DNA of 64,000 nt from a virus. Positions within the stretch are counted from its first letter, which is position 1; the number at the start of each line of letters is the position of its first letter. A program made the translations under genes and the position numbers. The notes under the pieces were generated by a model. That model saw nothing but the letters and a program-made list of their open reading frames with translations. It did not search any database and had not been told where the DNA came from. Shown piece by piece: positions 23,457 through 52,001 of this stretch. The stretch is taken from IMG/VR virus record IMGVR_UViG_3300050821_023931, positions 1 through 64,000 of that record; one strand, 5' to 3'.

Positions 23457-25004
23457 ATGCCTAAACCAAGAGGATATTGGACTAAAGAAAAATGTCATAC
23501 AGAAGCCTTAAAATATAAAACAAGGAAAGAATTTGTTGAAAATGCTAAAAGTGCATATACATCAGCTTATAAAAATGATTGGATAAAGGATATTTGTTCT
23601 CATATGGAATATCATGGTACACGATTTATTCGTTGTGTTTATGTATATGAGTTTGTTGATAATTACGTTTATGTTGGTTTAACATATAATACTAAAAGAA
23701 GAGATAAAGAACATAAAAATGGTTTGAAAAGTGCTGTTTATAAACATATTAAAGAAACTGGGTTAATACCAAATTTCATACCAGGTGATTATATTCCCGT
23801 AGAAGAAGCACAAAAATTAGAAGGGGAAACAGTTCAGAAATATAAACTAAATGGTTGGTGTATATTGAACAAAGCAAAAACAGGTAATTTAGGTGGTAGT
23901 GTTTTAATATGGAACAAAGAAAAATGTGCTCAAGAAGCCCTAAAGTTTAATAGTAGAAATATTTTCAGAATAAATTCTAAATCATATAGAGCAGCTCTTG
24001 CAAACGGTTGGTTAAATGAAATTTGTCAACATATGACCGAAGGGAATAAACCAATAACTTATTGGACTAAAGAAAAATGTCATGAAGAAGCTTTGAAATA
24101 TAAACATAAAACAGTTTTTGAAAAATCATCTACTAGTGCTTATCGAGTTTCTTGTGAAAATGGTTGGTATAAAGAAATTTGTTCCCATATGGAAGTGATA
24201 ATTAAACCAGATGGATACTGGACAAAAGAAGCATGTAAAGAGGAAGCTGTGAAATACAAATCAAGAACAACATTCTTTAAAAACTCTATAAGTGCTTATA
24301 AAGCAGCTTATAGAAGTGGTTGTTTAAATGAAATTTGTCAGCATATGGTTTCAAACAAAAAACCTAATGGTTACTGGGGTAAAGAAAATTGTGCTGAAGA
24401 AGCTTTGAAATATAAATCAAGAAGTGAGTTTTATAAAAAATCTGGTGCTGCTTATAATTCAGCACATAAAAACAAATGGCTTGAAGAAATTTGTACACAT
24501 ATGGAATATTTACAAAAACCTAATGGTTTTTGGAATAAAGAACGTTGTCGAGAAGAAGCTTTGAAATACAAAAATAAAAATGAATTTATTATATCATCCA
24601 AAGCTGGTTATTCTAAAGCATCTAAAAATGGTTGGTTAGACGAAATATGTTCTCATATGATATCAATAAGAAAATTTAGTGGTTATTGGACATATGATAA
24701 ATGTAAAGAAGAGGCTTTGAAATACAATACAAAGAATGATTTTTATATAAATTCAAAGGGTGCTTATCTATCAGCTTATAGAAAGGGATGGTATGAAGAA
24801 ATATGTTCTCATATGGTTTCACCATTAAAACCAAATGGTTACTGGACATACCAAACATGTAAAGAAGAGGCTTTGAAATACAAAACAAATGTAGAATTTA
24901 GAAAAAAAATGTCTGGGGCTTACAATGTAGCTTATAAAAACAGTTGGTTAGATGAAATATGTTCTCATATGATTCCACCAAAAAATAAAAGAAAATCTAA
25001 ATAA
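23457..25004 (+). CDS. GIY-YIG endonuclease with eight ~52-aa tandem repeats (1 + nuclease + 7)
   Basis: CVYVYEF..NYVYVGLT..KRRDKEH...E...LNK; repeat KPxGYWTKExCxEEALKY...AYxxA..NGWLxEICSHM. Confidence 0.85.
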   Translation: MPKPRGYWTKEKCHTEALKYKTRKEFVENAKSAYTSAYKNDWIKDICSHMEYHGTRFIRCVYVYEFVDNYVYVGLTYNTKRRDKEHKNGLKSAVYKHIKETGLIPNFIPGDYIPVEEAQKLEGETVQKYKLNGWCILNKAKTGNLGGSVLIWNKEKCAQEALKFNSRNIFRINSKSYRAALANGWLNEICQHMTEGNKPITYWTKEKCHEEALKYKHKTVFEKSSTSAYRVSCENGWYKEICSHMEVIIKPDGYWTKEACKEEAVKYKSRTTFFKNSISAYKAAYRSGCLNEICQHMVSNKKPNGYWGKENCAEEALKYKSRSEFYKKSGAAYNSAHKNKWLEEICTHMEYLQKPNGFWNKERCREEALKYKNKNEFIISSKAGYSKASKNGWLDEICSHMISIRKFSGYWTYDKCKEEALKYNTKNDFYINSKGAYLSAYRKGWYEEICSHMVSPLKPNGYWTYQTCKEEALKYKTNVEFRKKMSGAYNVAYKNSWLDEICSHMIPPKNKRKSK

Positions 25005-25056
25005 ACTTACTTTTAACTTCTGAACAGAATACATATATAAAGACTTTGTCTGATAT

Positions 25057-25419
25057 ATGGTGAAAGAGGACTTAAATAACTTCAAAGATATAGTAAAGCC
25101 TTTCGTGAGTTATTTTAAATCTCTAGTAGATCATGATGATTATCTTATACTTTATAGAAAATGGGCTCTTTGTAATTTAAATCTTGATACACTCATTGAT
25201 GTGATAGGTGACACAAATCAAGAAATAAAAGTACAAACACCTCTTAAAGTTCTTCTTGATTATTACAGATTTTTTGAAATTAAAAACAAACTTTTTCTAA
25301 CTGATTTATCTATTTCTGAATTACAAACTAATTGGATTAAACTATTAGAATACAGAAATATATGTATAAAAAATACTATTCTAATGAATCTTTATTATCA
25401 TGATTCGTTAGATCTTTAA
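25057..25419 (+). CDS. Hypothetical protein
   Basis: 120-aa ORF with ATATATAA upstream. Confidence 0.6.
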   Translation: MVKEDLNNFKDIVKPFVSYFKSLVDHDDYLILYRKWALCNLNLDTLIDVIGDTNQEIKVQTPLKVLLDYYRFFEIKNKLFLTDLSISELQTNWIKLLEYRNICIKNTILMNLYYHDSLDL

Positions 25420-26152
25420 TTCGAACCATCCAATTTTTCTGTCCCCTTTTTTCTAACTCAAATCCAGGCACAAACTTTTTTGTCATAAATTTAACCAATG
25501 TTGTTTTAGCTGCTTTTAAATTAGAGTAATGATGTCCAACGGTTTCAACCATAAGATTAAATTCGTATTCATCTTTATCTTTTAAAAATTCATTGATTCT
25601 ATTAATGGTACCTTTGAATACAGTAAAAAATTCTCCTTTGTTATTACCAGCTATTGACTCTTTTTGTTCTTCATAAACATTGGGAAGTTTATATCTAGGT
25701 TGTTTTGGTTCCGGATCATGACGAACTTTTATGGTTTGTCCAAAAAAGAATTCATCTTCACTCATTACACCATACCAATCTTTATTTCTTCTTAAATCAA
25801 CTTCAATTAAACCAATATCAAGGAAATCTTTACATATAGAAGCTGCTAATTCTAAATCGCTGTGATCTTTCTTTTGTATATAAAACATAGGTACAACGAC
25901 TGATACCTTATGTAAATGTTTTGACCAATTGTTTGCTTGACATATTACTTTAAAGCAAAAAGATGATTTAACTTCTAATCCCCAAAATATACCATCTTTT
26001 ACCGCTAAAATATCTATTCTTTTATCACCACCGGTTCCACTCATAGATACTTCCTTGTAAACGGTCCAACCAAGAAACTCTAAATATTTTACGGCTCTAG
26101 CAGCCAAGTCAGATTCCGTAAATTTTGCTGTTTTCTTAATTTTAGCTGACAT
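25376..26152 (-). CDS. PD-(D/E)xK superfamily nuclease
   Basis: E...VYKEV...RIDILAVK..WGLEVKSSF...QA. Confidence 0.7.
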   Translation of the reverse strand: MSAKIKKTAKFTESDLAARAVKYLEFLGWTVYKEVSMSGTGGDKRIDILAVKDGIFWGLEVKSSFCFKVICQANNWSKHLHKVSVVVPMFYIQKKDHSDLELAASICKDFLDIGLIEVDLRRNKDWYGVMSEDEFFFGQTIKVRHDPEPKQPRYKLPNVYEEQKESIAGNNKGEFFTVFKGTINRINEFLKDKDEYEFNLMVETVGHHYSNLKAAKTTLVKFMTKKFVPGFELEKRGQKNWMVRIKDLTNHDNKDSLE

Positions 26153-26209
26153 CTATATTTTTAATGTTTCTTTATATAGAAAGCTCATATGGTTCCAAAA
26201 GTTATTTTT

Positions 26210-26218
26210 AATATATAC
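26210..26218 (+). promoter_or_regulatory. Putative late promoter AATATATAC
   Basis: Upstream of the tail sheath gene. Confidence 0.55.
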
Positions 26219-26238
26219 TTTCAAACTTTCTAAAATTA

Positions 26239-29200
26239 ATGGCTATTAACATTGCTGATTATGGTGATCCTGGTATAATTATAAACGAAAAGGATTTTTC
26301 TCTATATACGATTTCAGGTTCTGATAATAACGTAACTACGCTTATTATTGGTGTTAGTCGTCAAGGACCTATGAATCTACCTATTCAAGTTAATTCTCCA
26401 GAAAATTTTGAGGAGATCTTCGGATCGTTAGACCGGACTTTGGAGAGAAAAGGATCATTCTTTCATCAAACCGTTGAAAACTTACTAGCTAGTGGTTCCA
26501 CTGTTACTTGTATCAATCTTTTATTGACAGACCCCCAATTTGATTTATATAATTGGATGTCTTTCTCAACGACAGCTTTTGTTCAAAATTCACCTGTTCG
26601 TAGTAATGCTGTAGATAGTTTTTATGATAAGAGAGGATTCTGGAAAAGATCTCCGGATCAATTATTAACGGTAGCAAATAATAGTTCGGTTGATGCAAAC
26701 CCGAGACTTTTTAACCTAGTCAATATGGGTGGTAAGGCTGTATCAGTTCTTATCAGACAATCGGCAAACAAAAATTTTGATATTACTTTAGAAGATTGGT
26801 ATGGTGGTCGTCATTTGGTACCTAATTATCTTCATCCACTAGATTTTGTTTCAGATTACCTGGTAGAAATGTTTGTTTTTGAGGGAAGATGGGATAATTA
26901 TAGAGTATTATCAACAGATCCTAAATTAGGTAAATACTTTAATTCTAATGGTCTTAAAAAAGAACTAATTCAAAATTTTGTAAATGAAAAAAGTTCTAAT
27001 TTTATACAAAGATATGAAGGAACTTTTATTCCATATTTTGCTGATATTAAAGGTAATGATATGTGGCTTCCTAGTCTTGTTAATGATGATATTGATACAT
27101 TAGGTATTTTAGTAGTCCAGGATATAGATAAGTTTGAAATGAGTAATCCATCTGATTATATGGTTGATATTCTTGGGGCCAGTCTTGAAGAAAATAGAAC
27201 TGATGTAATAGATTTCCTTTCATATAAAGAAAATATTGTTGATTTACTTGTTTTAGATGAGATGATGGTCGATCAGATTGGTAATGATTTTGGTTTTGAT
27301 TTAACAGGTTATTTAGGTTCTACTTCTGGAACTTATTATGCAGGAAGAAGGATTGGTTATGCTGAGGGGTATGTACAAGGTTGTCGTCTAAAACCTCTTA
27401 TATTAAGTTCTACTGGAACAGTAACTGTTAATCCGTTCGATTGTGATACTGAAGCTTATGTTATTTTTAAAGGTCAACAATTTACTTTAAGTGATGATAT
27501 TAGTTATGTATTTGCCTTGCATGAAAACATATCAACGAACATGCAAGCTTTGATGTTGTTTTATGTAGACATTACTGGTATTCATATGACTATTGGTGCT
27601 CAATCTTCTATAAATGGATCTATGAAATTTCCTTATATGGATCCTGACAACACGTTAGTCCTTGGATATTATAGATTTTATCAGATTGGTTTACAGTATT
27701 ACATAGAACTTCCTGTAGGAGTAACAATAGATATTAATGGTTTTATATTACCGTATAGATTAGGTAGTGAGACAGCACCAAAGATACATTTTCAAGATGT
27801 TCCGTATGCTTGGCAGATTAATTTATATTTTGAAAATGTAAAAACAGTTACTGGATACGATTATAATGTTAACCGAATATATTATTTATGGTCCATATTA
27901 TCACAAAAGTTAGTTCAGAAAGTATCCATGGTTCTTGATGTAAATAGTAATAAGAAAGTTATTAATTTTATTGAACCTGGTGATGATAATACAGGAAGAT
28001 GGCTTAGAATAGGTGTGCTCGATACAACAGCAAATATTAGAGATACTATTTCTGTGAATTTAGAATTAGCTATTTATTTTGCTGACGTTGATTTTATATT
28101 CCAAGATGAAAATATATTAAGAACTACAGATAATCCATTTGTGATTGGTCAAGATGGTATCGTGGGTAGAGACAGTATGCTTTATCAAGCTTATAAGCAG
28201 AGTTTTGTTAATACTGGTGATCACTTCTTTTTAGAATTGGCTACTGAAATTAATACACAGTTTATTTTTGATAATGGTAATAATTTGCTTGTGTTACAAA
28301 CGGGACCTATTGAAAATTATCTCAATCTTAAAATATTTGTATACGGTTCACAATATAACGATGGTGAGTTTAATGTTATTGGAGAGACTTATTATAATAA
28401 TTATTATGCTTTGGTTTTAGATAAACCTATTGTTGCTGAATCTGTGGCGGAATTAGGAATTTTTGATGCTTCAGTTTTACAGTATTTAAATTTGTATATG
28501 GTAAATGATATACTTTATGCTGACTATAAAGTTGATCCTAACCAAACTGAAGTTTTTCAAAATATAGTTAAACCAAACAATCCTAATAGTTTTAGAAAAA
28601 CTGTTGAGATACAGCAAATACTTAATAACAACATAATACTTGTAGATGCTACTAAATATGTTAATTTATTAAATGTTGGTGATTTCTTACTAGCTGATAC
28701 AACTAGTGATCCATTTTACAGCGAACAAGGCTTTAGAAAAAGGGATTGGGTTAGAATTATTGATATTGTAGCTTATGCACAAAATACTAGTTGGTTGTTA
28801 ATTGAAGCTGATGCTGCTATTAATATAACTAATCTTAATGGTAGTCTTCAAACTACAGGTTTTGTAAAAGTTGAAAATTATGTGAATACTTATAATTTAC
28901 ATACATTCGATGGTTTTAAAGTAAGACCAGAATCTATGCCGGATGGTACAGAAACAAGACTTAACGATATTCTTAATTTAGTTGCTCCAGGAACTAAATT
29001 GTTCGATCAAATTACTGATCCAGAGATATTGGAATGGCGATATTTGGTAGATTCGTTTGGTCTTGGACTTACAACAAATTGTAAACAACAATTGGCTGAC
29101 ATTTGTGGGGCAAAAACATTAGGTTTAGGCTTCCTGAATTTACCTTCTGCAAAAAGTTTTAAAAAATCAACAAGTCCAACATTTACAGATCCTACCTATG

Positions 29201-29943
29201 GTAATCTTTCTATTCAGCAAATAGTTAATGGTGGTTCAAGGGTTACTTCGGGAAGTTTCCAATTTGGTTTAGCTGATGGTGTAGGTATAAGTAATGTTGC
29301 TTATTTCTTCCCTTATGTTATTATCAATGATGATGGAAGGCCATCTTTTGTTCCTCCGGCCAGCTTTGCTGCTAGTTTATTCTTATCAAAATATACTACT
29401 AGAGATAGTCAAATTACACCATGGACGATTATGGCTGGTGCTGATCGAGGATTTATAGCTGGGATAGCTGGTACAGAAATGGAGTTTACACAAAACGATT
29501 TGAATCTATTAAATCTATTAAGAGTAAATCCTATACAAACACATCTTACTAAATTCTATGCTATAGCCTCTGATAACACAGCTGAATCTAAGAATAGTGT
29601 TTTAGGTAATATACATGTTCGTGAGGCTTTAATAAGTTTAGAAAGTTCATTAAGATCAATGCTTAAATCTTTCCAATGGAAATTCAGTATACCTTCAGTA
29701 CGAGCTGAAATTCTTAGACAAGCTAATAATATATGTCAGAATTATTTTACACAAAATGCTATAGCTAATTATAAAAATATATGTGATGAAACGAATAATA
29801 CACCAGATCTTATTGATGCACAGATAGGTGTTTTGGATACTTTTGTTGAACCAATAGCTGGAATGGGAACGATTGTTTTAAATATTGGTGTTGATAAAAC
29901 TGGCGGAATTCAAGTAAATGAGACAACTTCACAAATTTTTTAA
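26239..29943 (+). CDS. Tail sheath protein, T4 gp18-like, with large insertions
   Basis: PGIIINEKD...IGVSRQGPMNLP...FEEIFG N-terminus; C-terminus IHVREALI...NICDETNNTPDLID...DTFVEP. Confidence 0.9.
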   Translation: MAINIADYGDPGIIINEKDFSLYTISGSDNNVTTLIIGVSRQGPMNLPIQVNSPENFEEIFGSLDRTLERKGSFFHQTVENLLASGSTVTCINLLLTDPQFDLYNWMSFSTTAFVQNSPVRSNAVDSFYDKRGFWKRSPDQLLTVANNSSVDANPRLFNLVNMGGKAVSVLIRQSANKNFDITLEDWYGGRHLVPNYLHPLDFVSDYLVEMFVFEGRWDNYRVLSTDPKLGKYFNSNGLKKELIQNFVNEKSSNFIQRYEGTFIPYFADIKGNDMWLPSLVNDDIDTLGILVVQDIDKFEMSNPSDYMVDILGASLEENRTDVIDFLSYKENIVDLLVLDEMMVDQIGNDFGFDLTGYLGSTSGTYYAGRRIGYAEGYVQGCRLKPLILSSTGTVTVNPFDCDTEAYVIFKGQQFTLSDDISYVFALHENISTNMQALMLFYVDITGIHMTIGAQSSINGSMKFPYMDPDNTLVLGYYRFYQIGLQYYIELPVGVTIDINGFILPYRLGSETAPKIHFQDVPYAWQINLYFENVKTVTGYDYNVNRIYYLWSILSQKLVQKVSMVLDVNSNKKVINFIEPGDDNTGRWLRIGVLDTTANIRDTISVNLELAIYFADVDFIFQDENILRTTDNPFVIGQDGIVGRDSMLYQAYKQSFVNTGDHFFLELATEINTQFIFDNGNNLLVLQTGPIENYLNLKIFVYGSQYNDGEFNVIGETYYNNYYALVLDKPIVAESVAELGIFDASVLQYLNLYMVNDILYADYKVDPNQTEVFQNIVKPNNPNSFRKTVEIQQILNNNIILVDATKYVNLLNVGDFLLADTTSDPFYSEQGFRKRDWVRIIDIVAYAQNTSWLLIEADAAINITNLNGSLQTTGFVKVENYVNTYNLHTFDGFKVRPESMPDGTETRLNDILNLVAPGTKLFDQITDPEILEWRYLVDSFGLGLTTNCKQQLADICGAKTLGLGFLNLPSAKSFKKSTSPTFTDPTYGNLSIQQIVNGGSRVTSGSFQFGLADGVGISNVAYFFPYVIINDDGRPSFVPPASFAASLFLSKYTTRDSQITPWTIMAGADRGFIAGIAGTEMEFTQNDLNLLNLLRVNPIQTHLTKFYAIASDNTAESKNSVLGNIHVREALISLESSLRSMLKSFQWKFSIPSVRAEILRQANNICQNYFTQNAIANYKNICDETNNTPDLIDAQIGVLDTFVEPIAGMGTIVLNIGVDKTGGIQVNETTSQIF

Positions 29944-29962
29944 AATATTTTTTATTTTTTAT

Positions 29963-29988
29963 AAACTTTAATTGGATAGCCTATATAA
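29963..29988 (+). promoter_or_regulatory. Bipartite promoter AAACTTT-N12-TATATAA (gp32)
   Basis: Exact consensus. Confidence 0.75.
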
Positions 29989-30064
29989 ATATCACAAGGA
30001 ACATGTTCGCTGCCCCTAATTAAGGCCCTTTGGTAAATAACAAACATATAAACAATTAAATACT

Positions 30065-31078
30065 ATGAGTAAAGATCTATTTCGCTTAGACGCAAAGAAA
30101 ACAACAAATTTTACGGAACAAAAAAGTTTCGTACCAGAAGGTATTTATAAACCTTCTACAAAAACAGCTAAAGATGCACGTGAGGGTTATTCTTCAATAA
30201 TCAGATTACTGCCTAATTTCACACAGAAAAAAGAAGTAGAGGATAATGCGATTCGTATTACTACTTTCTATGTAAACATAGAAGAATATCCGGAACTTAA
30301 CGGAAAGATTTTTTCTAAAACAAACTTCGCTGAAAAATGTCCTCTTGGTACTCTTTACAAAAGATTAAAAGATAGTAAAAGTAGTGAGGATAATGATAAA
30401 TGTGATTTATTCAAAAAATCTACTAAATATTATTCTTATATTCTTGTAATAGAGGATGAAAATGCTCCTGATCTTGAAGGTAAAGTATTGATTTGGGAAT
30501 TTGGTATCAAAATAAAAGAGAAAATCGATATTGAAATGAAGGGTAAAAACAGAAAAAAAGAATCATGTAATGTATATGATCTTGCTGTTGGAAAAGATCT
30601 TCAAATTCTTATCACTGGTGCTGGTCAAATGACTAATTATGATAAATGTGTATTTGTTGAACAACCATCACCTATTTTCTTAAAAGGAAAAGGTGTTATA
30701 CCAACTGAAGAAGACGAAGATGGTAGAGTTATTATTGCTCAAGATATGCAAGAACCTCTTGTTAAATTTCTTCTTAAAAGAAAGAAAAATTTAGAAGAAT
30801 TAGCACCTATTCCATGGGATGATGAAATGGTTGATAAAGTAAATCAAGTAATGGAATACTTGAATGGTTCTACACCAATTGCTTCAGCCAAACAATCAAT
30901 CAAGCAAGTTTCTTCTAAAAGAACAGTTGTTATTGATGACGAAGATGATGCTGATGCACCTGTTGAAAAACCTAAAGCTACAGCGAAAGCGAGTACTAAA
31001 GTAAATACTTCTACAGCAAAAGCTACAATGACAGCCAATCAATTCTTTGGTGATCTTGATGATGAGGATGATGAATAG
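30065..31078 (+). CDS. Single-stranded DNA-binding protein, T4 gp32-like
   Basis: IIRLLP, CPLG, YYSYILVIED..PDLEGKVLIWEFGIKI, NYDKC.F; acidic C-terminal tail. Confidence 0.9.
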   Translation: MSKDLFRLDAKKTTNFTEQKSFVPEGIYKPSTKTAKDAREGYSSIIRLLPNFTQKKEVEDNAIRITTFYVNIEEYPELNGKIFSKTNFAEKCPLGTLYKRLKDSKSSEDNDKCDLFKKSTKYYSYILVIEDENAPDLEGKVLIWEFGIKIKEKIDIEMKGKNRKKESCNVYDLAVGKDLQILITGAGQMTNYDKCVFVEQPSPIFLKGKGVIPTEEDEDGRVIIAQDMQEPLVKFLLKRKKNLEELAPIPWDDEMVDKVNQVMEYLNGSTPIASAKQSIKQVSSKRTVVIDDEDDADAPVEKPKATAKASTKVNTSTAKATMTANQFFGDLDDEDDE

Positions 31079-31099
31079 TCTCTAGTAAAAAGTAATTTA

Positions 31100-31140
31100 A
31101 CAAAAAAGGAATGTTTTATTAAAAAACATTCCTTTTTTGT
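31100..31140 (+). terminator. Intrinsic terminator after the SSB gene
   Basis: 18-bp inverted repeat ACAAAAAAGGAATGTTTT/AAAACATTCCTTTTTTGT. Confidence 0.8.
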
Positions 31141-31145
31141 TTGAC

Positions 31146-31170
31146 AACTTTAAGCAGTTTAGCTATATAA
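31146..31170 (+). promoter_or_regulatory. Bipartite promoter AACTTT-N12-TATATAA
   Basis: Same spacing as the other copies. Confidence 0.7.
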
Positions 31171-31191
31171 ATAAAAAGAAAAACTTGTAAT

Positions 31192-32361
31192 ATGTATTAT
31201 AAATATAAGTTCGATGGAAAAGGTGAACCTAAAAAAATTATTAGAGAAGAAGGTGACTCTTATATAATGAGTGATGGTGCTCATATAAAAAAAGGACTTT
31301 TCGAAACGTTATTCACTAAATATGAAGGTAATATTAATGAATCAGTATCTATGTATCCTAATAATAACAATTTGAGAAATACTGGATTACCTGTAATTCA
31401 TAATGCTGGAATGATAGATGATGATTCACCTATAGATCCAGATACTTTTTTCAAACAGGGTGCTGTACAAATGCATAGTAGAATTGAATATGATAAAAAC
31501 AATTTAGATAATCCTAATTATCAAAATAAAATTAAACAGGAATCAAGAGACTTAGGTTCTATTGTATTAGATGAAAATGCTAGACATAAACTATACAACA
31601 ATACTATTCCTAATCTGAATGTGCAAGTAGGTCATTCTACTGATAGTGTAGTAAATCCTAATGAGTATGTATCACCTTATGGTTCAAATGTACAAAATAT
31701 AAAAAAGAGCCAACTTAATCCAATGGCTATGGACCCAATGTTTTCGGATGCTAAAATTGAAGGCTCTGTTAAAACAAATAATCCTGGATCTGTAATGCCT
31801 ACTGTTAACAGCAGTACATATCAACAAGATTTATATCTACAACAGCAACAGAATCAACAATCTTTTCAGAATCAACAGTCTGTTCAGAATCCTCTTTTTA
31901 AAAAAATGAAGAGAAAACATTCACATACATTTTCTATTAAATATACTAAGTTTATAGCAGATCCTGATTTTATTAAAATAATGGATTCTAATATGGAAGA
32001 TAGTTTAGTTGAATTATTTGCTGAGGAATTTACAAATGAGGTGATGAAAGATCGTGCTACTATTAAACAAATGTTTATTGATGAGCTTGAACTTGTTGTG
32101 TATGGTAAGAAAAAGACTAAACCAAAAAAGATAGTTACTAAAAAATCGAAAACCGTTGAAATTGAAACGGAAAAGGAAACTGAAGTAACAATTGTTGAGT
32201 CTAAAAAAGATTTAAATATAGATCCTATTTCAGGTAAGAGATTTGCACCAGTCGACCCAAGATATGCTCATTTGAATTTACCACCAGTTCTCGAAGATGA
32301 CGATGATGATGGGACTACAGTTACAATATTAAATGAAGGAATGTCAGAAGAATTAGAATAA
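31192..32361 (+). CDS. Hypothetical protein, largely low-complexity (N/Q-rich)
   Basis: 389 aa; carries the YVSPYGS...DPMFSDAKIE motif shared with 53042-54034. Confidence 0.7.
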   Translation: MYYKYKFDGKGEPKKIIREEGDSYIMSDGAHIKKGLFETLFTKYEGNINESVSMYPNNNNLRNTGLPVIHNAGMIDDDSPIDPDTFFKQGAVQMHSRIEYDKNNLDNPNYQNKIKQESRDLGSIVLDENARHKLYNNTIPNLNVQVGHSTDSVVNPNEYVSPYGSNVQNIKKSQLNPMAMDPMFSDAKIEGSVKTNNPGSVMPTVNSSTYQQDLYLQQQQNQQSFQNQQSVQNPLFKKMKRKHSHTFSIKYTKFIADPDFIKIMDSNMEDSLVELFAEEFTNEVMKDRATIKQMFIDELELVVYGKKKTKPKKIVTKKSKTVEIETEKETEVTIVESKKDLNIDPISGKRFAPVDPRYAHLNLPPVLEDDDDDGTTVTILNEGMSEELE

Positions 32362-32367
32362 TATAGT

Positions 32368-32565: not shown

Positions 32566-32615
32566 TATATCAGAAAGAATTATTCAGATAAATACAATAA
32601 ATTATTTAAGTCATA

Positions 32616-42093: not shown

Positions 42094-43352
42094 ACATATA
42101 CTTCAGCATCATTATGATAGAACCCAGACTTACCAACACTTTTGTAATCTGGTATGTTATTCCATTTTGAATGTCTTGTTGTTCTAACAGAAGCACCATT
42201 ATATTCCAACGTAGGTCTACCACTATTTGTAATACTGGTCATTTTAAAATCATAAATTCCTGTTGGTAGAGATTCTTTTGCACCTTCACTAAGTCCTTTT
42301 ACAGGAAATATAACAACTTTAAATTTAGGAGCTTTTTTGTTTTTTTCGTAATAACTTAAAATCTCTCTTTCTATCTGATATATTGATTTGCTACCAGATA
42401 TTTTTGTCCATTTAGTGTCAGCTTTTATGTTCTTAGACAGTTCTCTTGCTTCGTTAAGATAATCAGTATAAGATTTCTTTGCTTCTTTACCAAGAAGAAT
42501 CAAAAAAGCATTTTTATATTCTTGAATGAGTTCGTTGATAAGTTTTTTACTACGTTCACCATCATTATCACCAATTTTAGCAAATGACACAAGTAATTTT
42601 TTGATATTTGGTGTATCACATATAGTTACAAATTTATCAAAATCAACTCCTGGATTTTCTGTACGATTAAAGTACAACAAGGCACCGAATTCTGTGTTAG
42701 TCATGTTGCCTTTATTGTACATAACATCAAGAAGCTTCATATCTTCTATGAAAGAAGTACTAAGAATTCTGTTTTTAATAATTTCATTCTTTTGAGTTGG
42801 TTTTGTTTCAGTCTTCCAGCCATAATCTCTTATAGCACTTATCGCTGATAAATAACCATCAAAACCATCATAGAAATTAGTTATATTTAGATCAAATATT
42901 ACTTTAAGGGCCAAAGCAAAACCTCTGTCATAATATTTACCGGTTCCATTATAAAACTTGAAGTGATTCAAATAAACCAAAAGTTTTAATATGTTTTGAT
43001 CACTAATATCATCAGTGTGGTATATACGTACTTGTATAGGATGTTCTGGTGCAGTATAGAATAGTAATCTTCTGAAACCATCCAATAGTACATATTCACC
43101 ATCTGTTTTCTCCAGAAGAAAGAAGTTTTGGTATTCGTATATTTCTAATGGAGGATTCTTTTCTAGCTTTTCTTCTCTGTTATGAGAATCGATCTCTCTG
43201 TTATATTCTTCCAGGTTGATCCCTTTTTTAGTTAAATTACCTTTCAAATATGAACTAAGTTTTTTAGCTGATACTGTATTAATTGTATAATCTACACCAA
43301 GAAAATTATCATGTAACTTGGCCGTCGTTTCTATTTTGAATGTGTTTTTCAT
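42078..43352 (-). CDS. Protein with a ParB-like N-terminal domain
   Basis: YVLLDGFRRLL motif. Confidence 0.6.
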   Translation of the reverse strand: MKNTFKIETTAKLHDNFLGVDYTINTVSAKKLSSYLKGNLTKKGINLEEYNREIDSHNREEKLEKNPPLEIYEYQNFFLLEKTDGEYVLLDGFRRLLFYTAPEHPIQVRIYHTDDISDQNILKLLVYLNHFKFYNGTGKYYDRGFALALKVIFDLNITNFYDGFDGYLSAISAIRDYGWKTETKPTQKNEIIKNRILSTSFIEDMKLLDVMYNKGNMTNTEFGALLYFNRTENPGVDFDKFVTICDTPNIKKLLVSFAKIGDNDGERSKKLINELIQEYKNAFLILLGKEAKKSYTDYLNEARELSKNIKADTKWTKISGSKSIYQIEREILSYYEKNKKAPKFKVVIFPVKGLSEGAKESLPTGIYDFKMTSITNSGRPTLEYNGASVRTTRHSKWNNIPDYKSVGKSGFYHNDAEVYVCFEL

Positions 43353-43431
43353 AAGTTAAAACTTTATACGTTTTTTGAATATAAACGCAAATAAGTAAAA
43401 AAGGTTGTAAAAACCTAAAAATTCACAACTT

Positions 43432-43665
43432 TTATGTAAAATCAGTTTTACTTCTATAAATTGCAATAGCCTCTCGCATCTTCTCAGCACATTCTTCGAT
43501 AGAATTACCTTTGACTACCGGGAATCGATCATCTGACTTAGATGAAAAATGAGAGAAATATTTACAAGTCCAAACAGTATCAGAACCACCATCCGGCATA
43601 AAACATAAACCGAATGGTTCCCCATTGTAAGTATGTTTAGGTATTTTTGATAATATATCTGTCAT
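43432..43665 (-). CDS. Hypothetical protein
   Basis: 77-aa ORF. Confidence 0.55.
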   Translation of the reverse strand: MTDILSKIPKHTYNGEPFGLCFMPDGGSDTVWTCKYFSHFSSKSDDRFPVVKGNSIEECAEKMREAIAIYRSKTDFT

Positions 43666-43667
43666 AT

Positions 43668-43859
43668 TTACTTCTCATTTTTTATATAGCCGTTTGATAT
43701 TCCTGAACAGAATGCTACAACAGCTAATATAAACCAATACCTAAAATCATAAACAGATATTTTAAGTAGAAACAATAAACATAATTGTAAAGCAATCAAT
43801 TCTAAGTTCCTCATACAAAATGAAAAAACTACTAGAAATATTTGAATTAAGTTATTCAT
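43668..43859 (-). CDS. Small membrane protein
   Basis: Hydrophobic segments. Confidence 0.5.
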   Translation of the reverse strand: MNNLIQIFLVVFSFCMRNLELIALQLCLLFLLKISVYDFRYWFILAVVAFCSGISNGYIKNEK

Positions 43860-43863
43860 ATTT

Positions 43864-44451
43864 TTATTCTTTTGATGGTATTATGTTAGAAAACAAAGCC
43901 TCAGTCTCAATTATACCAACAGTAGCATCAAAACTTGTTTCGCTATGTTGTTCTATTCTAAGATAATTTTGCTCATTTTTATCCATATAATCAAAACAAA
44001 CCATTTCTAAAGAACTTTCTATATTCGTTGTTTCTACATCTCTAACAAAACAAGGCTTTTCATTTTGTAGAAGGAATTCTATACCATTATAAGTAATCTT
44101 ATTTGGTGCTGTTTGATTTTCAACAATAGAATCCGCTAGTGTTTCATCAATAGCACCCATATTTACTCTTTCTGTTACAATAATACGAAGACCATTCATA
44201 TCATCCATATAAATATACTTATTAATTGTACCATCGGTAATCTTAAATTCAAATGAGAATACATTATTACTCCAGTCAAACTCTATTTCTTGAATGACTT
44301 CCCAGGCTTTTCCGATATAATCTATAAACCAGCCAGGATGAATATCTGTGATTTTTAGGTTTAATGGATCGTAATTCAATTCAGATTCATCATTTTTGTA
44401 TGATGTAAAACCAAAAAGGTTTTTTAAAAAGTTAAAGATTCTTTTGATCAT
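43864..44451 (-). CDS. DUF4178-like protein
   Basis: DI.PGWFIDY.GKAWEV...EFDW...FEFKI; P.KI.YNG.EF; DY.D..E..YL.IEQ; TACCTTTG promoter at 44477-44484. Confidence 0.7.
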   Translation of the reverse strand: MIKRIFNFLKNLFGFTSYKNDESELNYDPLNLKITDIHPGWFIDYIGKAWEVIQEIEFDWSNNVFSFEFKITDGTINKYIYMDDMNGLRIIVTERVNMGAIDETLADSIVENQTAPNKITYNGIEFLLQNEKPCFVRDVETTNIESSLEMVCFDYMDKNEQNYLRIEQHSETSFDATVGIIETEALFSNIIPSKE

Positions 44452-44592
44452 GTTTGATATGTTTTTATTTTATAAACAAAGGTAAAAAGAATTATATGAA
44501 AATACTAAATAAAACAGAAATAATGTAGTTTTCGTCTTCTGTATAAGATAGCTGGCCGTATATATAATTCATAATTATAGAAAGAAACCTAA

Positions 44593-47500
44593 ATGTTACA
44601 GTTATTAAATCAGTCGTTATCAGATTTACAATTTTTAAATGTTAACGAAACTGTTTATTTCTATTTTGATAATAGTGGTTATTATACAGGTGGTACACAA
44701 GGAACTTCTGGTACATCTGGTTCTGTCTTTGTAGATCCGTTAAATTTACTTGGTACAGAAAAATATGTATGGAATTTTGATGCTGCGGATTCAACACCAG
44801 ATAAAGCTATACAAACTACTATTGGACCAGATCCTGTAAACAGGGAGGTGAGTTTTCAAAATCCTGGACCAAGAACTGTAGAATTAAAAATATATGATGC
44901 TGGTACCAGTGGTGCTGTTATTTATGATGAGTCTATAAATTTTAGTGTATATCAATTTGCTTCTGAGATTATAGGTCCTGAGTTTGTGCAGGTGAATCAA
45001 ACTGGAAATTTCCAAACTTTAGAAGGTCCTGGTGATGATGTGACCTATAATTGGTATAATAATGGTGTTTTAGAGAAATCGGCTAGTTTAGATACTGATT
45101 CAGAACCACATATGTATTCTATTGCTTTTACTGTTAATATGACAAGAGCTTCTATAAAACTTGTTATGAATCATGGTAATGGTACACAAATACTTCAATT
45201 TGTTTGTGTTGTATCCAGAGGTAATGCAACACAAGGTCAAAAATATGAATCCGATGTAACACCTAAACTTTTGTTCTTTAATAAAGAAGGTGATTGTTTA
45301 AATTTCAATTATAATGTTTATCAGGATGATCGTTCCCAATGGGAAGGAGATATGATATTTCATGTTAACGGTGATGATACATTTAAAACACAAGCTTTGT
45401 ATATTTTTGAATCTGTACCACCAGTAACAATAGATCAATCAAGTTTAATACTGGATAAATTTCAAGTCTTTAATCAATTTGGTATAGATTTTCAGCCTAC
45501 AAATACAATAGCTAAAACTGTTTATAATATTGATAAAATTGAAGCTGTTAATAATTCATCAGATTTTTATACAAAATGGGTATATGGAAACAATTTTCAT
45601 ATTATATTTCCTATTGGTTCCGAGGTTTATTTTGAAAATGTTAATTATTATAACATTACTAACAGTACGACCATTAATACACCTTTATCCGGTACAGCCA
45701 TACCAGATTTTAATTCTTTTCCTGGATTCGGTATACAAACATTTACTGTGTTAGGTACTAAACAAGATGCTATTCTAATTCTTACGACTACCAATAATAA
45801 TGTATACAATAGTAATTATGCTTCAGCTACTAATTTCTATACCTATTCTACAACTACACAAATATATAAAACTGCTCAGGGAGCATTAGTCAACATACAA
45901 CCTGGGACAATAGTAGGTTTAAATATTATTAAAGTCTTTAGTACTGATTTATATCTTACTACACCTACTGTAGATGACGAATTGAACCCAGAATGGAATG
46001 AAAATGGTTTCGAATATCTTTTATATGATCAAAAAAGTTTGACTATAGTAAATAGTCAATTTAATGATGGTGTTTATAATGTGAAATTTCTAAATTCTGA
46101 TCTTACAAATAAACTTTTAACTAAATATTATAAAGTTGATTGTATTAATTTGTTGGATCTTATGCCTAATCCAAGAATGGGTTTTAGAATAGATATAACG
46201 TTTAGAACAACTAGAATTTTATTATCAACGAACCCAGTAGATTTTATACCAGCCAGTACACTACCTTTTTTACTTAGTAAAAATCTTATCATATATGAAG
46301 CTATACCAACAAAAGATTTTACTCCTGGATTATTGCAGACTGGTGTTAGTTTTAATTTTGAAGACAATGGAACTAATAATCCTAATTTTGTTGGAACTTA
46401 TGATTGTATTAAAGTTGATCAAATATTAAATATTGTAACACCAAATAATACAGATACTACAGGATGGAGTATTAGAATGTATAATACTGATAGTTACAGT
46501 GCTCTGGCCTCTCTTGTAAGATTTTCTAATTTTATTGATACTCAACCTCTAGTATATGATTTAGCAACAAGGAATTCATATATTGAGATGTTGACACTTC
46601 AAATAGTGATAAACAATATATCCACTTATAATATACATTTTAAAACTATAGATTTTAACTTTGATAATGGTGATATGGATAGTTTATATGTATTTATTAA
46701 AAACTATATTAATACAAATATAAAAGGTGTTGGTGCTTTTGTTGATAGAGATAATGTAAGAATACTTGAATTCCCAGGATATTCTATAACTACTTTAACT
46801 ATGGGTTGGCAGTATGGTTTTACGATTAAACATAATGTCATACATTCAACATTACTTCCACAATATGGTCTTGCCGGAAATGCTGTTATAAGTCTTAACA
46901 CAAGTGATTATAATGGATTTGTTTATTATAGAACATCTACAAATACTGTTCATATATTTATCTGGGATGATGTAAATTCTGTCGCTGCATGGTATACTAT
47001 GGGTGATACAAAAAAGGTGGTATGGGTTGAAACTACTGGATCTATAGAATATCAACAAAGCACTTTAGGTTCGGCGTATTTAGTTGATACAGTATTATCG
47101 TTTTATCAAACTGGTAATCTATCCGATATTAATTTGGGTCGAGATATACAAGCATATCAATTTGTTAATGCTTATCAAAGTGTGTTTGCAAATTATGGTT
47201 TGGAATTATTTATAAATGGTAGTGACTTGTGTATAACAAGAATACAATTACTTAATTCTACTAGTACTACTGAAGATTATTCTATTATTGGGTTCTTTGC
47301 TTTAACGCAAGCATATTTCACCCCAGCACTTCCGGGTGAAATAACAGAGTCTTATCCTACAGGACTTACCTCAGGGACTGCTGGTATGGCCACTTATACA
47401 CAATTAACACAAGAAGTAAGATTTCAAAGTGTTGAGATGTTTCAGGTTGCTACTCCAGTTATAGCAGAGAAAAACCATTTTATAGGTCTTTATGCTGCAC

Positions 47501-50457
47501 TTAAAAGTATTTCAGCAAACTATCAAAGAAAAATAGAGATATTTTCTATTGATAAAACATTCGGTTTGATTATAAAAATTAATGGAATTAATTATTCTGT
47601 TGCTTATGATGACATTTTTGATAACTCTTTAGTAGGTTATGATACAATTGACTCAACAATGGGTAATTCTTCTGAATCTTTTTTATTGAATGATCTAATT
47701 GATATTCAACGAATATTAATGAATTTTGGTAATCAGGAATTTACAATAGGACAAGAGACCTCATCAAATGATAGTTCTGTTGGTCTAAAATATTATAGAG
47801 AACTTGAAAGTCTTGGTGTGATAATATACCTTGAACGTTCTTCTTTCTTGGATCCTTTATACTCTTCTTCTGGTGGAGGAGCATACGGTGAAAGACCTTA
47901 TGATACACTCGTTATTGAATCTAAATACCCAAATGTACCTGTAACGTTTAGTGTTACCGGTGCTCTCGATTATAGAATTAAAAATAAGGAAATAGAATTT
48001 ATTGATATTGGTGCAACAATGACAGTATCTATAAACTCTGTAAATTATACATTAAATAATATTCCTTCAACACAATCTATTCCTGATACTTTAGAATTAT
48101 TTGTTACTACATATGCAGGACAATTATTTCAAATTGGTATTATAGTGGATCACTATTATTTAGAAAATTTCCCTTATGACAGATCGACTAGTCTTTTATT
48201 TTATACTCTTGCTGATACTACAAGGATTAATATTACAGTATGGACAGGTAAAAATTCTATTCCTGGAAAAGAAACTTATATTATTAATGATTATGCACCT
48301 GGGAATGTAGGTATAATACTTGCTGGTAATGAATTAGCAACAACAGACACTAATATTGACCTTGAAGCAGCTGGTCTTGCTACAGCAATGATAATCGCTG
48401 TTACTGGTGCTAAATTTCCATTAAATAATCAAGAATATAATATAATTTATCTTGCTTCAGACCGTGTTGGATTATCTTATCAGGGACCTTTCTGGCCAAG
48501 CTCAGATGATTTAGGTACAACTCTTCCACAAAGGGTACCTGGATTTGATTGGGAATTATTATCTGAACCTGGTACATCACTTGTTTATGGCACTTCGGGA
48601 ACATCTGGTTTGGTAGAGAATTTAATTATTAAAAGTAGACAATTTCTAAGATATCCAAGAGAAGGATATATGGGTGATACACCAAAGAAGATTCAAGCTC
48701 GTTGGCTTGATGATACGGATACATCAATGTTCTTCTATGAATTTACAGGAAATCAATTAAACGTTACAGATCATGGTGCTTATACTTATGTAGGACCAAC
48801 ACCTTTATTTTCTGATTCGTATAATTTATATCTTAACAGTAATCCTAATAAAGATCTTACAAAAGTAGCTGATCCAAGATATCAACAAACAGTATTTGAA
48901 GATCTTACCTATAATATAGAATTCCTAGATTCAGAAACTGATATTAATCCTCAACCAACACCTTTACAAATATTTATAGGTTATAGAGGAGATCTTGAAG
49001 GTGTAAATACAAGGACTTTAATTATTGAAAGAGTTGAAGATATCAATATAACAATTAATACTGAACCACAGGATCCGACTCGTACATTCTTGCCTTGGGT
49101 TAATATTATGACTTTCGATAGTACTACCAATGAACTTACACTGTCAAGTAACAGAGGTGTGTTAACAAATGCTAACAATAATACTTATAAACCTTATAGT
49201 TTTTTAGATGCTGGATTTTTAATTGGACATCTTGTTCAAATTAATGGTGTTGATAGTAATTCTGCTTATAATGCAATGTCATTTAAAAATAATGGTTTTA
49301 TTGGTGAGATTGCCATTGTTGGTATAAACAAAATCACATTTAAAAATACTACTACACTAGTAGATGAGGTTAGTTATTCAATAATTAAAAATCCTCTTCC
49401 ACCTTTTAATCAAATTCCTGCCGGTTTAAGTGTTACAATAGCTGTAGTTCCTCAACAGATTGCTCAAATTAATATAAATGGTCAAACAGAAATAGAAGAT
49501 GACCGTTTTCTGGCCATGTTCAATATTCTTGGTGGTAAAATTCTTCATAGAGATGTTTTTATATTCAAAGATTATGATATTCAAGAAGCCGGAATTGACT
49601 GGATATTCTTGAATGAAAAAAGAAAAGAAATGCTTTTAATAAGAAATGATATTTACAATTATATCGGTTCTTATAAAGCCGTTATTCATGCTATCAATTA
49701 TTTTGGTTATAATGATGTAAGTTTCAATGAGTATTATTTGAATATCGATAAAACCTCTAACAATTTTGGTAAATTAGTAAAAGTTGAAATTCCTAATATA
49801 TTTGATAACAGTACTCCTGGGTGGAATGCTAATGATTACATAACAAAAACATTACCTAATCCAAGATTCCAAAAGACTGGTTTATTCAATTTAACCTATA
49901 GATTAACGGACACCAATGGTAATAATGTACTAAATTATACTTTAGATGAAGTTACTATTAAACTACTCGGTTTAAAATCTTGGTTACAAGATCAAACAAT
50001 ACCACCAGGTAAAAGAATTAAAGATATAACTGGTGTTGGTGAAGATAACCAAACCACTTATTTAGTACATGATGTTAGAAAAATTATGAAGGTTAAAACA
50101 AGACAAACTTTATCACCTGTAGTTGTGTCCAGAGTAGAAGTTTATCTTCAACCTATTGTAAATGTTGGTGAGACATATAATGTTCATATAGTATTTGGTA
50201 CGGAAGATACAACTACTATGCCTGACTATTATCATTTGAAAATTAGTACTTTTGCTGCGGATCCAGACATTAAGACCACTGGATATAGACTGGCTCCAGT
50301 ACAAACAAAAAATGAATATAGAACAGATCTTACAGGGTACAATTTTACTGTTGACCGCTATACGGATCCTTTCATACTGATAGAAATATTTTCAGACAAT
50401 AACTACGGTGCTACATTCAAATTCCGTAAAACTTATGATATTTCTAATAGTTTATAA
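44593..50457 (+). CDS. Large virion structural protein (1954 aa), probable baseplate component
   Basis: PKD/Ig-like N-terminus (YVWNF...PGPRTVEL); C-terminus YIGSYKAVIHAINYFGY; TATATATAA upstream. Confidence 0.65.
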   Translation: MLQLLNQSLSDLQFLNVNETVYFYFDNSGYYTGGTQGTSGTSGSVFVDPLNLLGTEKYVWNFDAADSTPDKAIQTTIGPDPVNREVSFQNPGPRTVELKIYDAGTSGAVIYDESINFSVYQFASEIIGPEFVQVNQTGNFQTLEGPGDDVTYNWYNNGVLEKSASLDTDSEPHMYSIAFTVNMTRASIKLVMNHGNGTQILQFVCVVSRGNATQGQKYESDVTPKLLFFNKEGDCLNFNYNVYQDDRSQWEGDMIFHVNGDDTFKTQALYIFESVPPVTIDQSSLILDKFQVFNQFGIDFQPTNTIAKTVYNIDKIEAVNNSSDFYTKWVYGNNFHIIFPIGSEVYFENVNYYNITNSTTINTPLSGTAIPDFNSFPGFGIQTFTVLGTKQDAILILTTTNNNVYNSNYASATNFYTYSTTTQIYKTAQGALVNIQPGTIVGLNIIKVFSTDLYLTTPTVDDELNPEWNENGFEYLLYDQKSLTIVNSQFNDGVYNVKFLNSDLTNKLLTKYYKVDCINLLDLMPNPRMGFRIDITFRTTRILLSTNPVDFIPASTLPFLLSKNLIIYEAIPTKDFTPGLLQTGVSFNFEDNGTNNPNFVGTYDCIKVDQILNIVTPNNTDTTGWSIRMYNTDSYSALASLVRFSNFIDTQPLVYDLATRNSYIEMLTLQIVINNISTYNIHFKTIDFNFDNGDMDSLYVFIKNYINTNIKGVGAFVDRDNVRILEFPGYSITTLTMGWQYGFTIKHNVIHSTLLPQYGLAGNAVISLNTSDYNGFVYYRTSTNTVHIFIWDDVNSVAAWYTMGDTKKVVWVETTGSIEYQQSTLGSAYLVDTVLSFYQTGNLSDINLGRDIQAYQFVNAYQSVFANYGLELFINGSDLCITRIQLLNSTSTTEDYSIIGFFALTQAYFTPALPGEITESYPTGLTSGTAGMATYTQLTQEVRFQSVEMFQVATPVIAEKNHFIGLYAALKSISANYQRKIEIFSIDKTFGLIIKINGINYSVAYDDIFDNSLVGYDTIDSTMGNSSESFLLNDLIDIQRILMNFGNQEFTIGQETSSNDSSVGLKYYRELESLGVIIYLERSSFLDPLYSSSGGGAYGERPYDTLVIESKYPNVPVTFSVTGALDYRIKNKEIEFIDIGATMTVSINSVNYTLNNIPSTQSIPDTLELFVTTYAGQLFQIGIIVDHYYLENFPYDRSTSLLFYTLADTTRINITVWTGKNSIPGKETYIINDYAPGNVGIILAGNELATTDTNIDLEAAGLATAMIIAVTGAKFPLNNQEYNIIYLASDRVGLSYQGPFWPSSDDLGTTLPQRVPGFDWELLSEPGTSLVYGTSGTSGLVENLIIKSRQFLRYPREGYMGDTPKKIQARWLDDTDTSMFFYEFTGNQLNVTDHGAYTYVGPTPLFSDSYNLYLNSNPNKDLTKVADPRYQQTVFEDLTYNIEFLDSETDINPQPTPLQIFIGYRGDLEGVNTRTLIIERVEDINITINTEPQDPTRTFLPWVNIMTFDSTTNELTLSSNRGVLTNANNNTYKPYSFLDAGFLIGHLVQINGVDSNSAYNAMSFKNNGFIGEIAIVGINKITFKNTTTLVDEVSYSIIKNPLPPFNQIPAGLSVTIAVVPQQIAQININGQTEIEDDRFLAMFNILGGKILHRDVFIFKDYDIQEAGIDWIFLNEKRKEMLLIRNDIYNYIGSYKAVIHAINYFGYNDVSFNEYYLNIDKTSNNFGKLVKVEIPNIFDNSTPGWNANDYITKTLPNPRFQKTGLFNLTYRLTDTNGNNVLNYTLDEVTIKLLGLKSWLQDQTIPPGKRIKDITGVGEDNQTTYLVHDVRKIMKVKTRQTLSPVVVSRVEVYLQPIVNVGETYNVHIVFGTEDTTTMPDYYHLKISTFAADPDIKTTGYRLAPVQTKNEYRTDLTGYNFTVDRYTDPFILIEIFSDNNYGATFKFRKTYDISNSL

Positions 50458-50465
50458 ATATTGAA

Positions 50466-52001
50466 TTATTTCATGTGAGAACAAATTTCGTTTAACCAAC
50501 CGTTCCTATATGCAGCATCATAAGTTCTTCTACATTTCTCACAAAACTCTTTTTTCTTAGTATATTTTGAAGCTTCTTCTCGACAAATTTCTATTGTATA
50601 ATATCCAGAAGGTTTTTGAGGACTAGTCATATATTCACATATTTCATCTAACCAATTATTTTTGCACGCTATAGTATAAGCACTACCAGAATTTTTTTGA
50701 AATTCACCTCTAGTTTTATATTTTAAAGCTTCTTTAGCACATGTGTCAAAGTTCCATTTTCTTCTGCTTTCATTAGATCTAGCATCTTTCATATGTAAAC
50801 AAACAGTATCAAAAATTTTTAGATTTTTAAGTTTAACATAAGCAGTAAGATATTTTTTATGAAATTCAGTCTTATTTTCACAGGATTTAGCAGCATTTAT
50901 ACAACGTTCTTCTGTCCAGTAATGACGAAGTCTAATTTGTTCCATATGTTGAGTTATATCATACCATTTATTTTTTAAAGCTTTAGAATAGGCTGAAGGA
51001 CTATTAATTTTGAGATCATCTTTATTAATATATTTGAGAGCTTCTTTTTTACATCTCTCATAAGTCCAATAACCGTTAGGTTTTTTAATTTCAATCATAT
51101 GAGAACAAATTTCATCTAACCATTTATTTTTTGATGCTGGATTATAAGCTAAAGAATTATTTTGAAATTCACCTCTAGTTTTATATTTTAAAGCTTCTTG
51201 AGCACATTTTTCTTTTGTCCATTTTATGTTATTGCTACCTAACGCACCACCTTTCGCTTTATTTAATACCTTCCAGCCATTACTTCTATACTCAGATATA
51301 TAAAAGTTCTCGAATTTACCAACTTCATCAGCAGGATATAAACCAATATTTTTAACATTATATTCTTTACAATGGTTTTCGTAGTGTTTAAATACTTGAC
51401 TATTATCCTTATCTTTAGTAAAATGTTCTTTTATTCTTCTATCAATACTACTTGATATACCTACATAAGCATGGTTATCAGTAAACTCAACAATATAAAC
51501 ATATCTTCTGGTTTTATTTCCTTGTGGTATCATATGTGAACATATTTCTTCTAACCAACCACTTTTACATGCTGCAACATAAGCTGCTTTAGAATTTTTT
51601 CCGAATACATTCCTAATATCATATTTCAAAGATTCGATTAAACATAATTCTTTAGTCCAATAATGATCAGGCTTCTTCCTGTTTTCCATATGCGAACATA
51701 TTTTATCAATCCAACCATGACTTAGTGCTGAATTATAAGCACTACCACATTTTCTTTGAAAATCTATTTTCTTTGTATATTTTGAGGCTTCTTCAGCACA
51801 TTTTTCTTTAGTCCAATATCCTACAGGTTTTACAATTTTTATCATATGAGAACAAATTTCATCATACCACCCATTTTTTATAGCAGAACAACGAGCACTA
51901 CCACAATTTTTTATAAATTCTACTTTTGTATTATACTTTAGAGCTTCTTCATGACATTTTTCTTTAGTCCAATATCCTGAAGGTTTTATATTCTTATTCA
52001 T
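50466..52001 (-). CDS. GIY-YIG endonuclease with eight ~52-aa repeats (3 + nuclease + 5)
   Basis: YVYIVEF..HAYVGIS..RRIKEH...E...LNKAKGG; same repeat as 23457-25004. Confidence 0.85.
   Translation of the reverse strand: MNKNIKPSGYWTKEKCHEEALKYNTKVEFIKNCGSARCSAIKNGWYDEICSHMIKIVKPVGYWTKEKCAEEASKYTKKIDFQRKCGSAYNSALSHGWIDKICSHMENRKKPDHYWTKELCLIESLKYDIRNVFGKNSKAAYVAACKSGWLEEICSHMIPQGNKTRRYVYIVEFTDNHAYVGISSSIDRRIKEHFTKDKDNSQVFKHYENHCKEYNVKNIGLYPADEVGKFENFYISEYRSNGWKVLNKAKGGALGSNNIKWTKEKCAQEALKYKTRGEFQNNSLAYNPASKNKWLDEICSHMIEIKKPNGYWTYERCKKEALKYINKDDLKINSPSAYSKALKNKWYDITQHMEQIRLRHYWTEERCINAAKSCENKTEFHKKYLTAYVKLKNLKIFDTVCLHMKDARSNESRRKWNFDTCAKEALKYKTRGEFQKNSGSAYTIACKNNWLDEICEYMTSPQKPSGYYTIEICREEASKYTKKKEFCEKCRRTYDAAYRNGWLNEICSHMK

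Follow-up and report, generated by a model that had tools for sequence, protein, structure and literature searches.

GIY-YIG homing endonucleases pair a sequence-tolerant nuclease with binding modules that are separate from it. In I-TevI, I-BmoI and the T4 Seg enzymes, the nuclease is tethered to these modules in a beads-on-a-string arrangement. The T5orf172 homing endonucleases carry repeated DNA-binding domains (CapR, DUF723 and DUF4379), and Barth et al. (2023, PMC10448857) proposed that such intragenic repeats promote recombination and rapid shifts in specificity. Here, we analyse a stretch of 64,000 nucleotides (positions 1 to 64,000, referred to as the window) of the IMG/VR virus record IMGVR_UViG_3300050821_023931. 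The window contains two open reading frames, ORF A and ORF B, each of which encodes a GIY-YIG core embedded in an array of eight repeats of about 52 residues. We conclude that A and B are intact and probably free-standing genes of the homing type, whose repeat modules would serve as DNA-binding arms.

A and B share with I-TevI, I-BmoI and T4 Seg the fold and the catalytic residues of the GIY-YIG core, as well as the tethering of the nuclease to separate modules. The family to which the repeat belongs resembles the Seg type further in its free-standing intergenic genes and in its presence/absence polymorphism between related phages. Unlike I-TevI and Seg, A and B show no NUMOD or IENR module, no zinc-finger linker and no C-terminal helix-turn-helix (HTH), and the binding part in the family consists of 3–18 tandem copies, with the nuclease anywhere in the array rather than at the N-terminus. 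The T5orf172 enzymes also join a phage GIY-YIG-clan nuclease to repeated, independently folded binding domains, but their repeats are of zinc-finger type and have Pfam models, whereas the repeat of A and B is all-helical, lacks a Pfam match and has no supported metal site. The links between DUF723 and the repeat are a weak language-model neighbour (score 0.75) and an annotation on one relative (P0271), which a Pfam scan did not reproduce. The Ssn GIY-YIG nucleases, which act on single-stranded DNA, are single-domain proteins unrelated to the repeat. The family differs from the described systems in the type of module, in the long homotypic arrays and in a nuclease that can be embedded anywhere.

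Architecture of ORF A and ORF B

ORF A (515 residues) is located at 23457–25004 on the plus strand and is ordered as repeat 1, GIY-YIG core and repeats 2–8. ORF B (511 residues) is located at 50466–52001 on the minus strand and is ordered as repeats 1–3, GIY-YIG core and repeats 4–8. A first-pass annotation, made by a model from the DNA letters alone, had described both reading frames with these coordinates and strands, with eight repeats each and with the core behind repeat 1 in one gene and behind repeat 3 in the other, and our analysis agrees on every point. The period is 52 residues (156 nucleotides) and the core comprises about 95 residues. In A, repeat A1 (23463–23612) precedes the core (23613–23894, approximately residues 53–146), which is delimited by a Pfam match at residues 60–130 and by a Foldseek match to the structure 1mk0. 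The repeat profile places A2–A8 at 23895–24977, with A2 at 23895–24044, A3 at 24048–24197, A4 at 24204–24353, A5 at 24360–24509, A6 at 24516–24665, A7 at 24672–24821 and A8 at 24828–24977. In B, repeats B1–B3 cover 51525–51986 (B1 51837–51986, B2 51681–51830, B3 51525–51674), the core lies at 51237–51524 (approximately residues 160–255; Pfam residues 167–241, E 7e-8) and repeats B4–B8 cover 50469–51236 (B4 51087–51236, B5 50934–51083, B6 50784–50933, B7 50622–50771, B8 50469–50615), all on the minus strand.

All 16 repeats score with E values of 1e-22 to 1e-29 against a profile built from the 16 copies, and this profile detects no further copy in the 75.6-kb record of which the window is a part. 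The 156-nucleotide period is visible at the DNA level with 60–80% identity only, so the copies are old rather than the result of recent duplication. The mean pairwise identity of the 16 repeats is about 48%; B6 is a degenerate copy (18–33% identity to the other repeats). Positional orthology between A and B is absent, except for a modified start that is common to A2 and B4, the copies located directly after the nuclease in their arrays.

The GIY-YIG core

The Pfam GIY-YIG model (PF01541) matches B with 33.1 bits, above the gathering cut-off of 22.6, and A with 18.4 bits, below it. The core of A nevertheless aligns column by column with that of B and with 58 homologues. None of the 60 aligned sequences, A and B among them, departs from Y62, Y72, G74, R82, E122 or N138 (A numbering); these columns correspond to the GIY tyrosine, the Tyr-x-Gly of YIG, and the arginine, glutamate and asparagine positions of the superfamily. 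In Foldseek, the core of A superimposes on the I-TevI catalytic domain (1mk0) with a probability of 0.99, a target-normalised template modelling (TM) score of 0.63 and a root-mean-square deviation of 3.8 over 96 columns. Among viral predicted structures, the nearest neighbours after the members of the family itself are I-TevI-like, SegD-like and group I intron endonucleases. Scans of both proteins against NCBIfam and PHROGs returned no match with an assigned function besides the Pfam GIY-YIG domain; the entry phrog_20046, which represents the family in PHROGs, carries no function. As the catalytic residues are intact and the fold of the core matches that of I-TevI, both enzymes look catalytically competent, and they belong to the homing-endonuclease structural type (I-TevI/Seg), as had been proposed at first reading.

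The repeat module

The nearly fixed scaffold noted in the first-pass annotation is confirmed. C11 and M48 show no variation, and conservation reaches at least 90% at W6, E14, A15, K17, F24, Y32, I44, C45 and H47. The conserved positions W, C, A, Y, F, A-Y, A, W, L, I, C and M follow the spacing of a hydrophobic core. All repeats are basic (isoelectric point 7.9–9.3). The KPxGYW linker between them is conserved (P in 81%, W in 95%), which suggests a defined geometry on a ligand.

AlphaFold2 (AF2) models whole A with a mean predicted local distance difference test score of 91, and a single repeat on its own with 90.6. The predicted 50-residue unit contains three helices (residues 8–15, 21–27 and 29–37) and a one-turn fourth helix (41–44), and the pair formed by helices 2 and 3 is HTH-like. 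The predicted TM score (pTM) of the whole A protein is only 0.39 and the confidence dips at every linker, so the repeats look like separate beads rather than a rigid solenoid in the model.

No match to the repeat was found in NCBIfam or in the copy of Pfam searched. Weak Pfam matches on the repeats (DEPDC5_CTD, DUF7667, DUF7808, SERRATE_Ars2_N, KIP1 and others) stay under the cut-off over short stretches and were treated as spurious. Two newer Pfam accessions, PF26058 and PF27981, are attached to a minority of the family matches; neither occurs in the Pfam copy used here or in the literature searched. Neither the proteins (E≤1) nor the 16 single repeats (E≤10) gave a Pfam match to NUMOD1, NUMOD3, NUMOD4 or IENR. 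INT_rpt (PF14882), whose pattern is loosely similar, gave one weak match (E 0.026), located in a non-repeat segment of the relative P0099. A profile search found no sequence relative of the repeat in the Protein Data Bank (PDB), and a Foldseek fold search with one repeat returned nothing. With VIA-align, the best row for one repeat is an FF domain (Z 2.9), with winged-helix and HTH rows at about 2, all within noise. The 52-residue period, the WTKE start and the spaced aromatic residues are reminiscent of Myb/SANT-type three-helix repeats; the best Myb-like row (6jui, Cdc5 Myb-like) has a VIA Z of 2.1, within noise, and there is no sequence match in the PDB. A literature search found no publication on this repeat.

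The first-pass annotation had regarded each repeat as an HTH-like DNA-binding unit, possibly stabilised by zinc through two cysteines and a histidine. The modular character, the HTH-like helix pair, the basic charge and the fusions to nucleic-acid enzymes described below all fit the former; metal binding is not supported. The repeat offers only three candidate ligands, C10 (conserved in about 86–89%), C44 (about 88%) and H46. About one repeat in ten has V, L or I in place of C10, as expected of a buried core residue, and T or S can take the place of C44. The two losses are independent (odds ratio for co-occurrence 0.99, p = 1). H46, the histidine of the C-x-H-M motif, is conserved in 98–99% of about 1,500 repeats, above any hydrophobic core residue.

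Family size and domain architectures

The repeat profile matches 8,528 cluster representatives at E≤1e-3, and 6,304 at E≤1e-10, among 1.84 billion (clusters at 50% identity). Full-length relatives form at least 3,990 clusters of 283–902 residues, with 1,898 shorter ones in addition. Relatives occur in phages, in Vibrio, Shewanella, Colwellia and Photobacterium, and in metagenome-assembled genomes (MAGs) of a Rickettsiaceae bacterium and of an archaeon; the only name given to named relatives is 'GIY-YIG nuclease family protein'. The cellular distribution is patchy, with the repeat in one of 300 other genomes of one class, and a search of genome contigs with a single repeat gave four loci. One Cellvibrionaceae MAG (5 Mb) carries at least five separate repeat genes on contigs C3, C47 and C97, three of which lie in a 66-kb part of a single contig.

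The arrays contain 3–18 repeats and the nuclease is found at every possible position; in proteins with three repeats, all four orders of nuclease and repeats are seen. The nuclease register therefore varies throughout the family, and its difference between A and B is no peculiarity of the window phage. GIY-YIG accounts for 226 of the 233 non-repeat segments. The partners are otherwise varied, and arrays with no nuclease exist. In P0068, the repeat is fused to an MTES_1575/Vsr-like nuclease, and P0271 is a GIY-YIG protein carrying HTH_23. P0250–P0253 and P0257 are ResIII/DEAD helicases followed by 9–10 repeats (domains confirmed on P0251). In about 15 proteins, 3–11 repeats precede a superfamily 2 (SF2) helicase and a Methyltransf_8 domain of Rrp8 type, as confirmed on P0242 and P0258; metagenome proteins with this combination are P0242, P0248, P0254–P0260, P0262–P0265, P0267–P0270 and P0272. 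They make up an undescribed enzyme class, which may act on RNA or DNA. As the repeat has been moved between several kinds of nucleic-acid enzyme, it is most simply a nucleic-acid-binding module. On these architectures, the basic charge, the predicted fold and the mobility of family members described below, we regard it as a portable unit that most probably binds nucleic acid. One metagenome protein of 1,589 residues (P0266) is a eukaryote-type DDT/bromodomain/PHD/WSD protein with two phage-type repeats near its C-terminus.

Mobility of family members

In Vibrio schizotequatroviruses, a single intergenic site carries no family gene in ValKK3 (L085, 4580–4769), one in phi-Grn1 (phiGrn1_0289; L099, 4617–5800) and two in tandem in Va3 (L004, 3618–6090). 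The flanks of the site are 93–98% identical, and the empty spacer in ValKK3 is about 190 bp long. A piece of this spacer of about 48 bp recurs at every junction of the inserted nuclease gene or genes; it could be a regulatory or target region carried with the cassette. This pattern of zero, one or two copies is the behaviour of free-standing homing endonucleases. The 68-kb Rhizobium phage RHph_TM3_3_9 has eight matching places, which include genes on both sides of the primase gene, and in BcepSauron the family gene stands alone on the strand opposite to its neighbours. These records, like the sporadic occurrence in cellular genomes, also match the pattern of free-standing homing endonuclease genes.

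Proposed mechanism and non-specific binding

A and B are themselves intergenic and lie beside larger genes, as is usual for free-standing homing genes, and they are most probably selfish passengers of the window phage. In both, short tethers hold an I-TevI-like core within a beads-on-a-string array of eight modules. In the mechanism that we propose, each module would contact DNA through its conserved basic residues and exposed helix faces. The array would provide a long footprint that tolerates degeneracy, the embedded core would cut inside this footprint, and the genes would propagate by cleaving alleles that lack the nuclease, close to the sites of insertion.

Several observations speak against this mechanism. 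Five conserved acidic positions per repeat are unusual for a DNA reader, and neither VIA-align nor Foldseek found a fold relative among solved DNA-binding domains. RNA is a possible ligand in the proteins that carry an Rrp8-type methyltransferase, and arrays of up to 18 repeats exceed any plausible length of a specific site. A search with the methyltransferase encoded upstream of ORF A found no phage closely related to that of the window (among phages, the nearest methyltransferases are 32% identical), and homing by A and B themselves is a prediction.

The strongest alternative is that the repeats confer non-specific or structure-specific affinity for nucleic acid, through avidity, sliding or tethering, or that they bind protein, with the nucleases domesticated for the degradation of host DNA or for competition between phages. 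The same arrays are located on SF2 helicases and helicase-methyltransferases, which need no long specific site, arrays of 16–18 repeats would be too long for one such site, the surface variation looks evenly spread, as under drift, and some arrays have no nuclease. The copy-number polymorphism at one Vibrio phage site and the genes flanking the primase, however, fit site-directed mobility, and the conserved linker together with the 6,304 clusters at the stricter threshold argues for a constrained binding geometry. On balance, we consider non-specific arms unlikely and prefer homing-type genes with DNA-binding arms.

Residue variation and the mode of recognition

The two residues after the AY position (columns 33–34) are, in all 16 repeats of the window, those listed in the first-pass annotation, which had singled out this pair as varying in almost every module. 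The pair does vary, but it is not unique in doing so: column 25, directly after the conserved F, reaches 3.33 bits in the window as compared with 3.0 and 2.35 bits for the pair, in line with the variability around the F that had also been remarked on. About a dozen columns exceed 2 bits within the 16 repeats. An entropy profile of 1,168 repeats from 120 proteins (48 columns) peaks at 3.68 bits in the column after AY, and columns 28, 35, 24, 11, 2, 48, 26, 21, 18, 33 and 9 come close behind, all at about 3 bits or more. The variable exposed positions are distributed over helix 1 (9, 11 and 12), helix 2 (21, 24 and 25) and helix 3 (28, 29, 32, 33, 35 and 36), and the mean entropy of exposed positions is similar across the three helices. 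N, S, T, K, R and Q are frequent on the exposed side of helix 3. Covariation among the helix 3 columns is weak. A count over 1,547 unique repeats gives 203 of the 400 possible combinations for the post-AY di-residue (total 6.5 bits); the commonest, NS, accounts for 5.5% and the top seven together for about 28%.

A more ambitious version of the DNA-binding reading, possible in our view although doubtful, would make the module a new class of polydactyl DNA reader, in which several exposed residues, mainly of helix 3, recognise a few base pairs in a zinc-finger-like, combinatorial manner. The modules would be strung on the conserved linker, the position of the embedded nuclease would set the cut, and retargeting would occur by shuffling, duplication and deletion of modules; the same reader would aim the helicases and methyltransferases. 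The linker of C2H2 zinc fingers is TGEKP. A and B resemble polydactyl C2H2 proteins in their small independent modules, their short conserved linker (KPxGYW) and their several variable exposed positions, but differ in a module of 52 residues with three helices and no supported metal site, for which DNA binding is a prediction. Should every module prove to read DNA, array-type readers linked to a monomeric nuclease would already exist as a natural library in this family, with relevance to protein-only genome targeting; if they bind non-specifically, the repeat would still be a widespread new nucleic-acid-binding domain that annotation pipelines leave unnamed.

The first-pass annotation had gone further and suggested that each repeat reads a few bases by a simple residue code, as in transcription activator-like effectors (TALEs) or zinc fingers, so that the arrays would be predictably reprogrammable. 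TALEs have a near-constant scaffold, and a handful of repeat-variable di-residues dominate. Like TALE arrays, A and B are nucleic-acid-directed proteins built of tandem helical repeats with a fixed length. The position immediately following AY does vary most among the 48 columns, it is exposed on helix 3 (the second helix in the HTH-like pair), and the linker is conserved. The repeats are, however, far more divergent than those of TALEs (about 48% rather than near-identical), at least 11 other columns on all three helices are at or near 3 bits, the many di-residue combinations do not reduce to a small set, the helix 3 columns show no strong covariation, and the low pTM gives no confident superhelical packing between repeats. 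A TALE-like code set by the two post-AY residues is thus very improbable.

The phage record and neighbouring genes

The record holds part of the genome of a huge phage from soil. Its guanine plus cytosine content is low, at 28–33% throughout, CheckV estimates a completeness of 14%, and no tRNA genes were found in it. The window DNA matched one soil-metagenome DNA run, which is probably its source; no RNA run was listed.

A gene for an N6/N4 DNA methyltransferase (22492–23439, plus strand; Pfam N6_N4_Mtase, E 2e-32) ends 17 bp before ORF A and is probably a conserved gene that nuclease gene A adjoins. GIY-YIG restriction enzymes such as Eco29kI and Hpy188I are known, and the common strand, the 17-bp gap and the intact methyltransferase would suit a restriction-modification-like pair with A as the restriction enzyme, but this reading is weak, indeed hardly tenable, because ORF B and the homologues examined have no methyltransferase neighbour, the members in Vibrio, Rhizobium and Burkholderia phages adjoining unrelated genes. 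A and B are better explained as homing-type genes.

A bidirectional terminator-like hairpin with an 18-bp stem (52044–52083) is located 43 bp upstream of ORF B and separates it from small genes further upstream; it may isolate or gate the expression of nuclease gene B. ORF B is convergent with a gene of 1,954 residues (44593–50457, plus strand), whose product has no Pfam match at E≤0.001. A still larger ORF of 4,457 residues lies at 6572–19945 on the minus strand. The two giant products are probably virion or injected proteins of the huge phage.

A PolB-exonuclease-like gene is also present in the record. Adjacent genes for a phage Hsp70 (20049–21920; E 2e-198) and an Hsp20 (21922–22362) are located on the minus strand. 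At least 80 IMG/VR contigs, many 100–500 kb in length, encode relatives of the Hsp70 with 50–60% identity; the surrounding gene order differs, and no Hsp70 relative of the window phage exceeds 60% identity or shows synteny. Just downstream of ORF A, an ORF of 258 residues (25376–26152, minus strand) overlaps the end of a 120-residue ORF and gives a weak match, below the cut-off, to the nuclease-related domain NERD.

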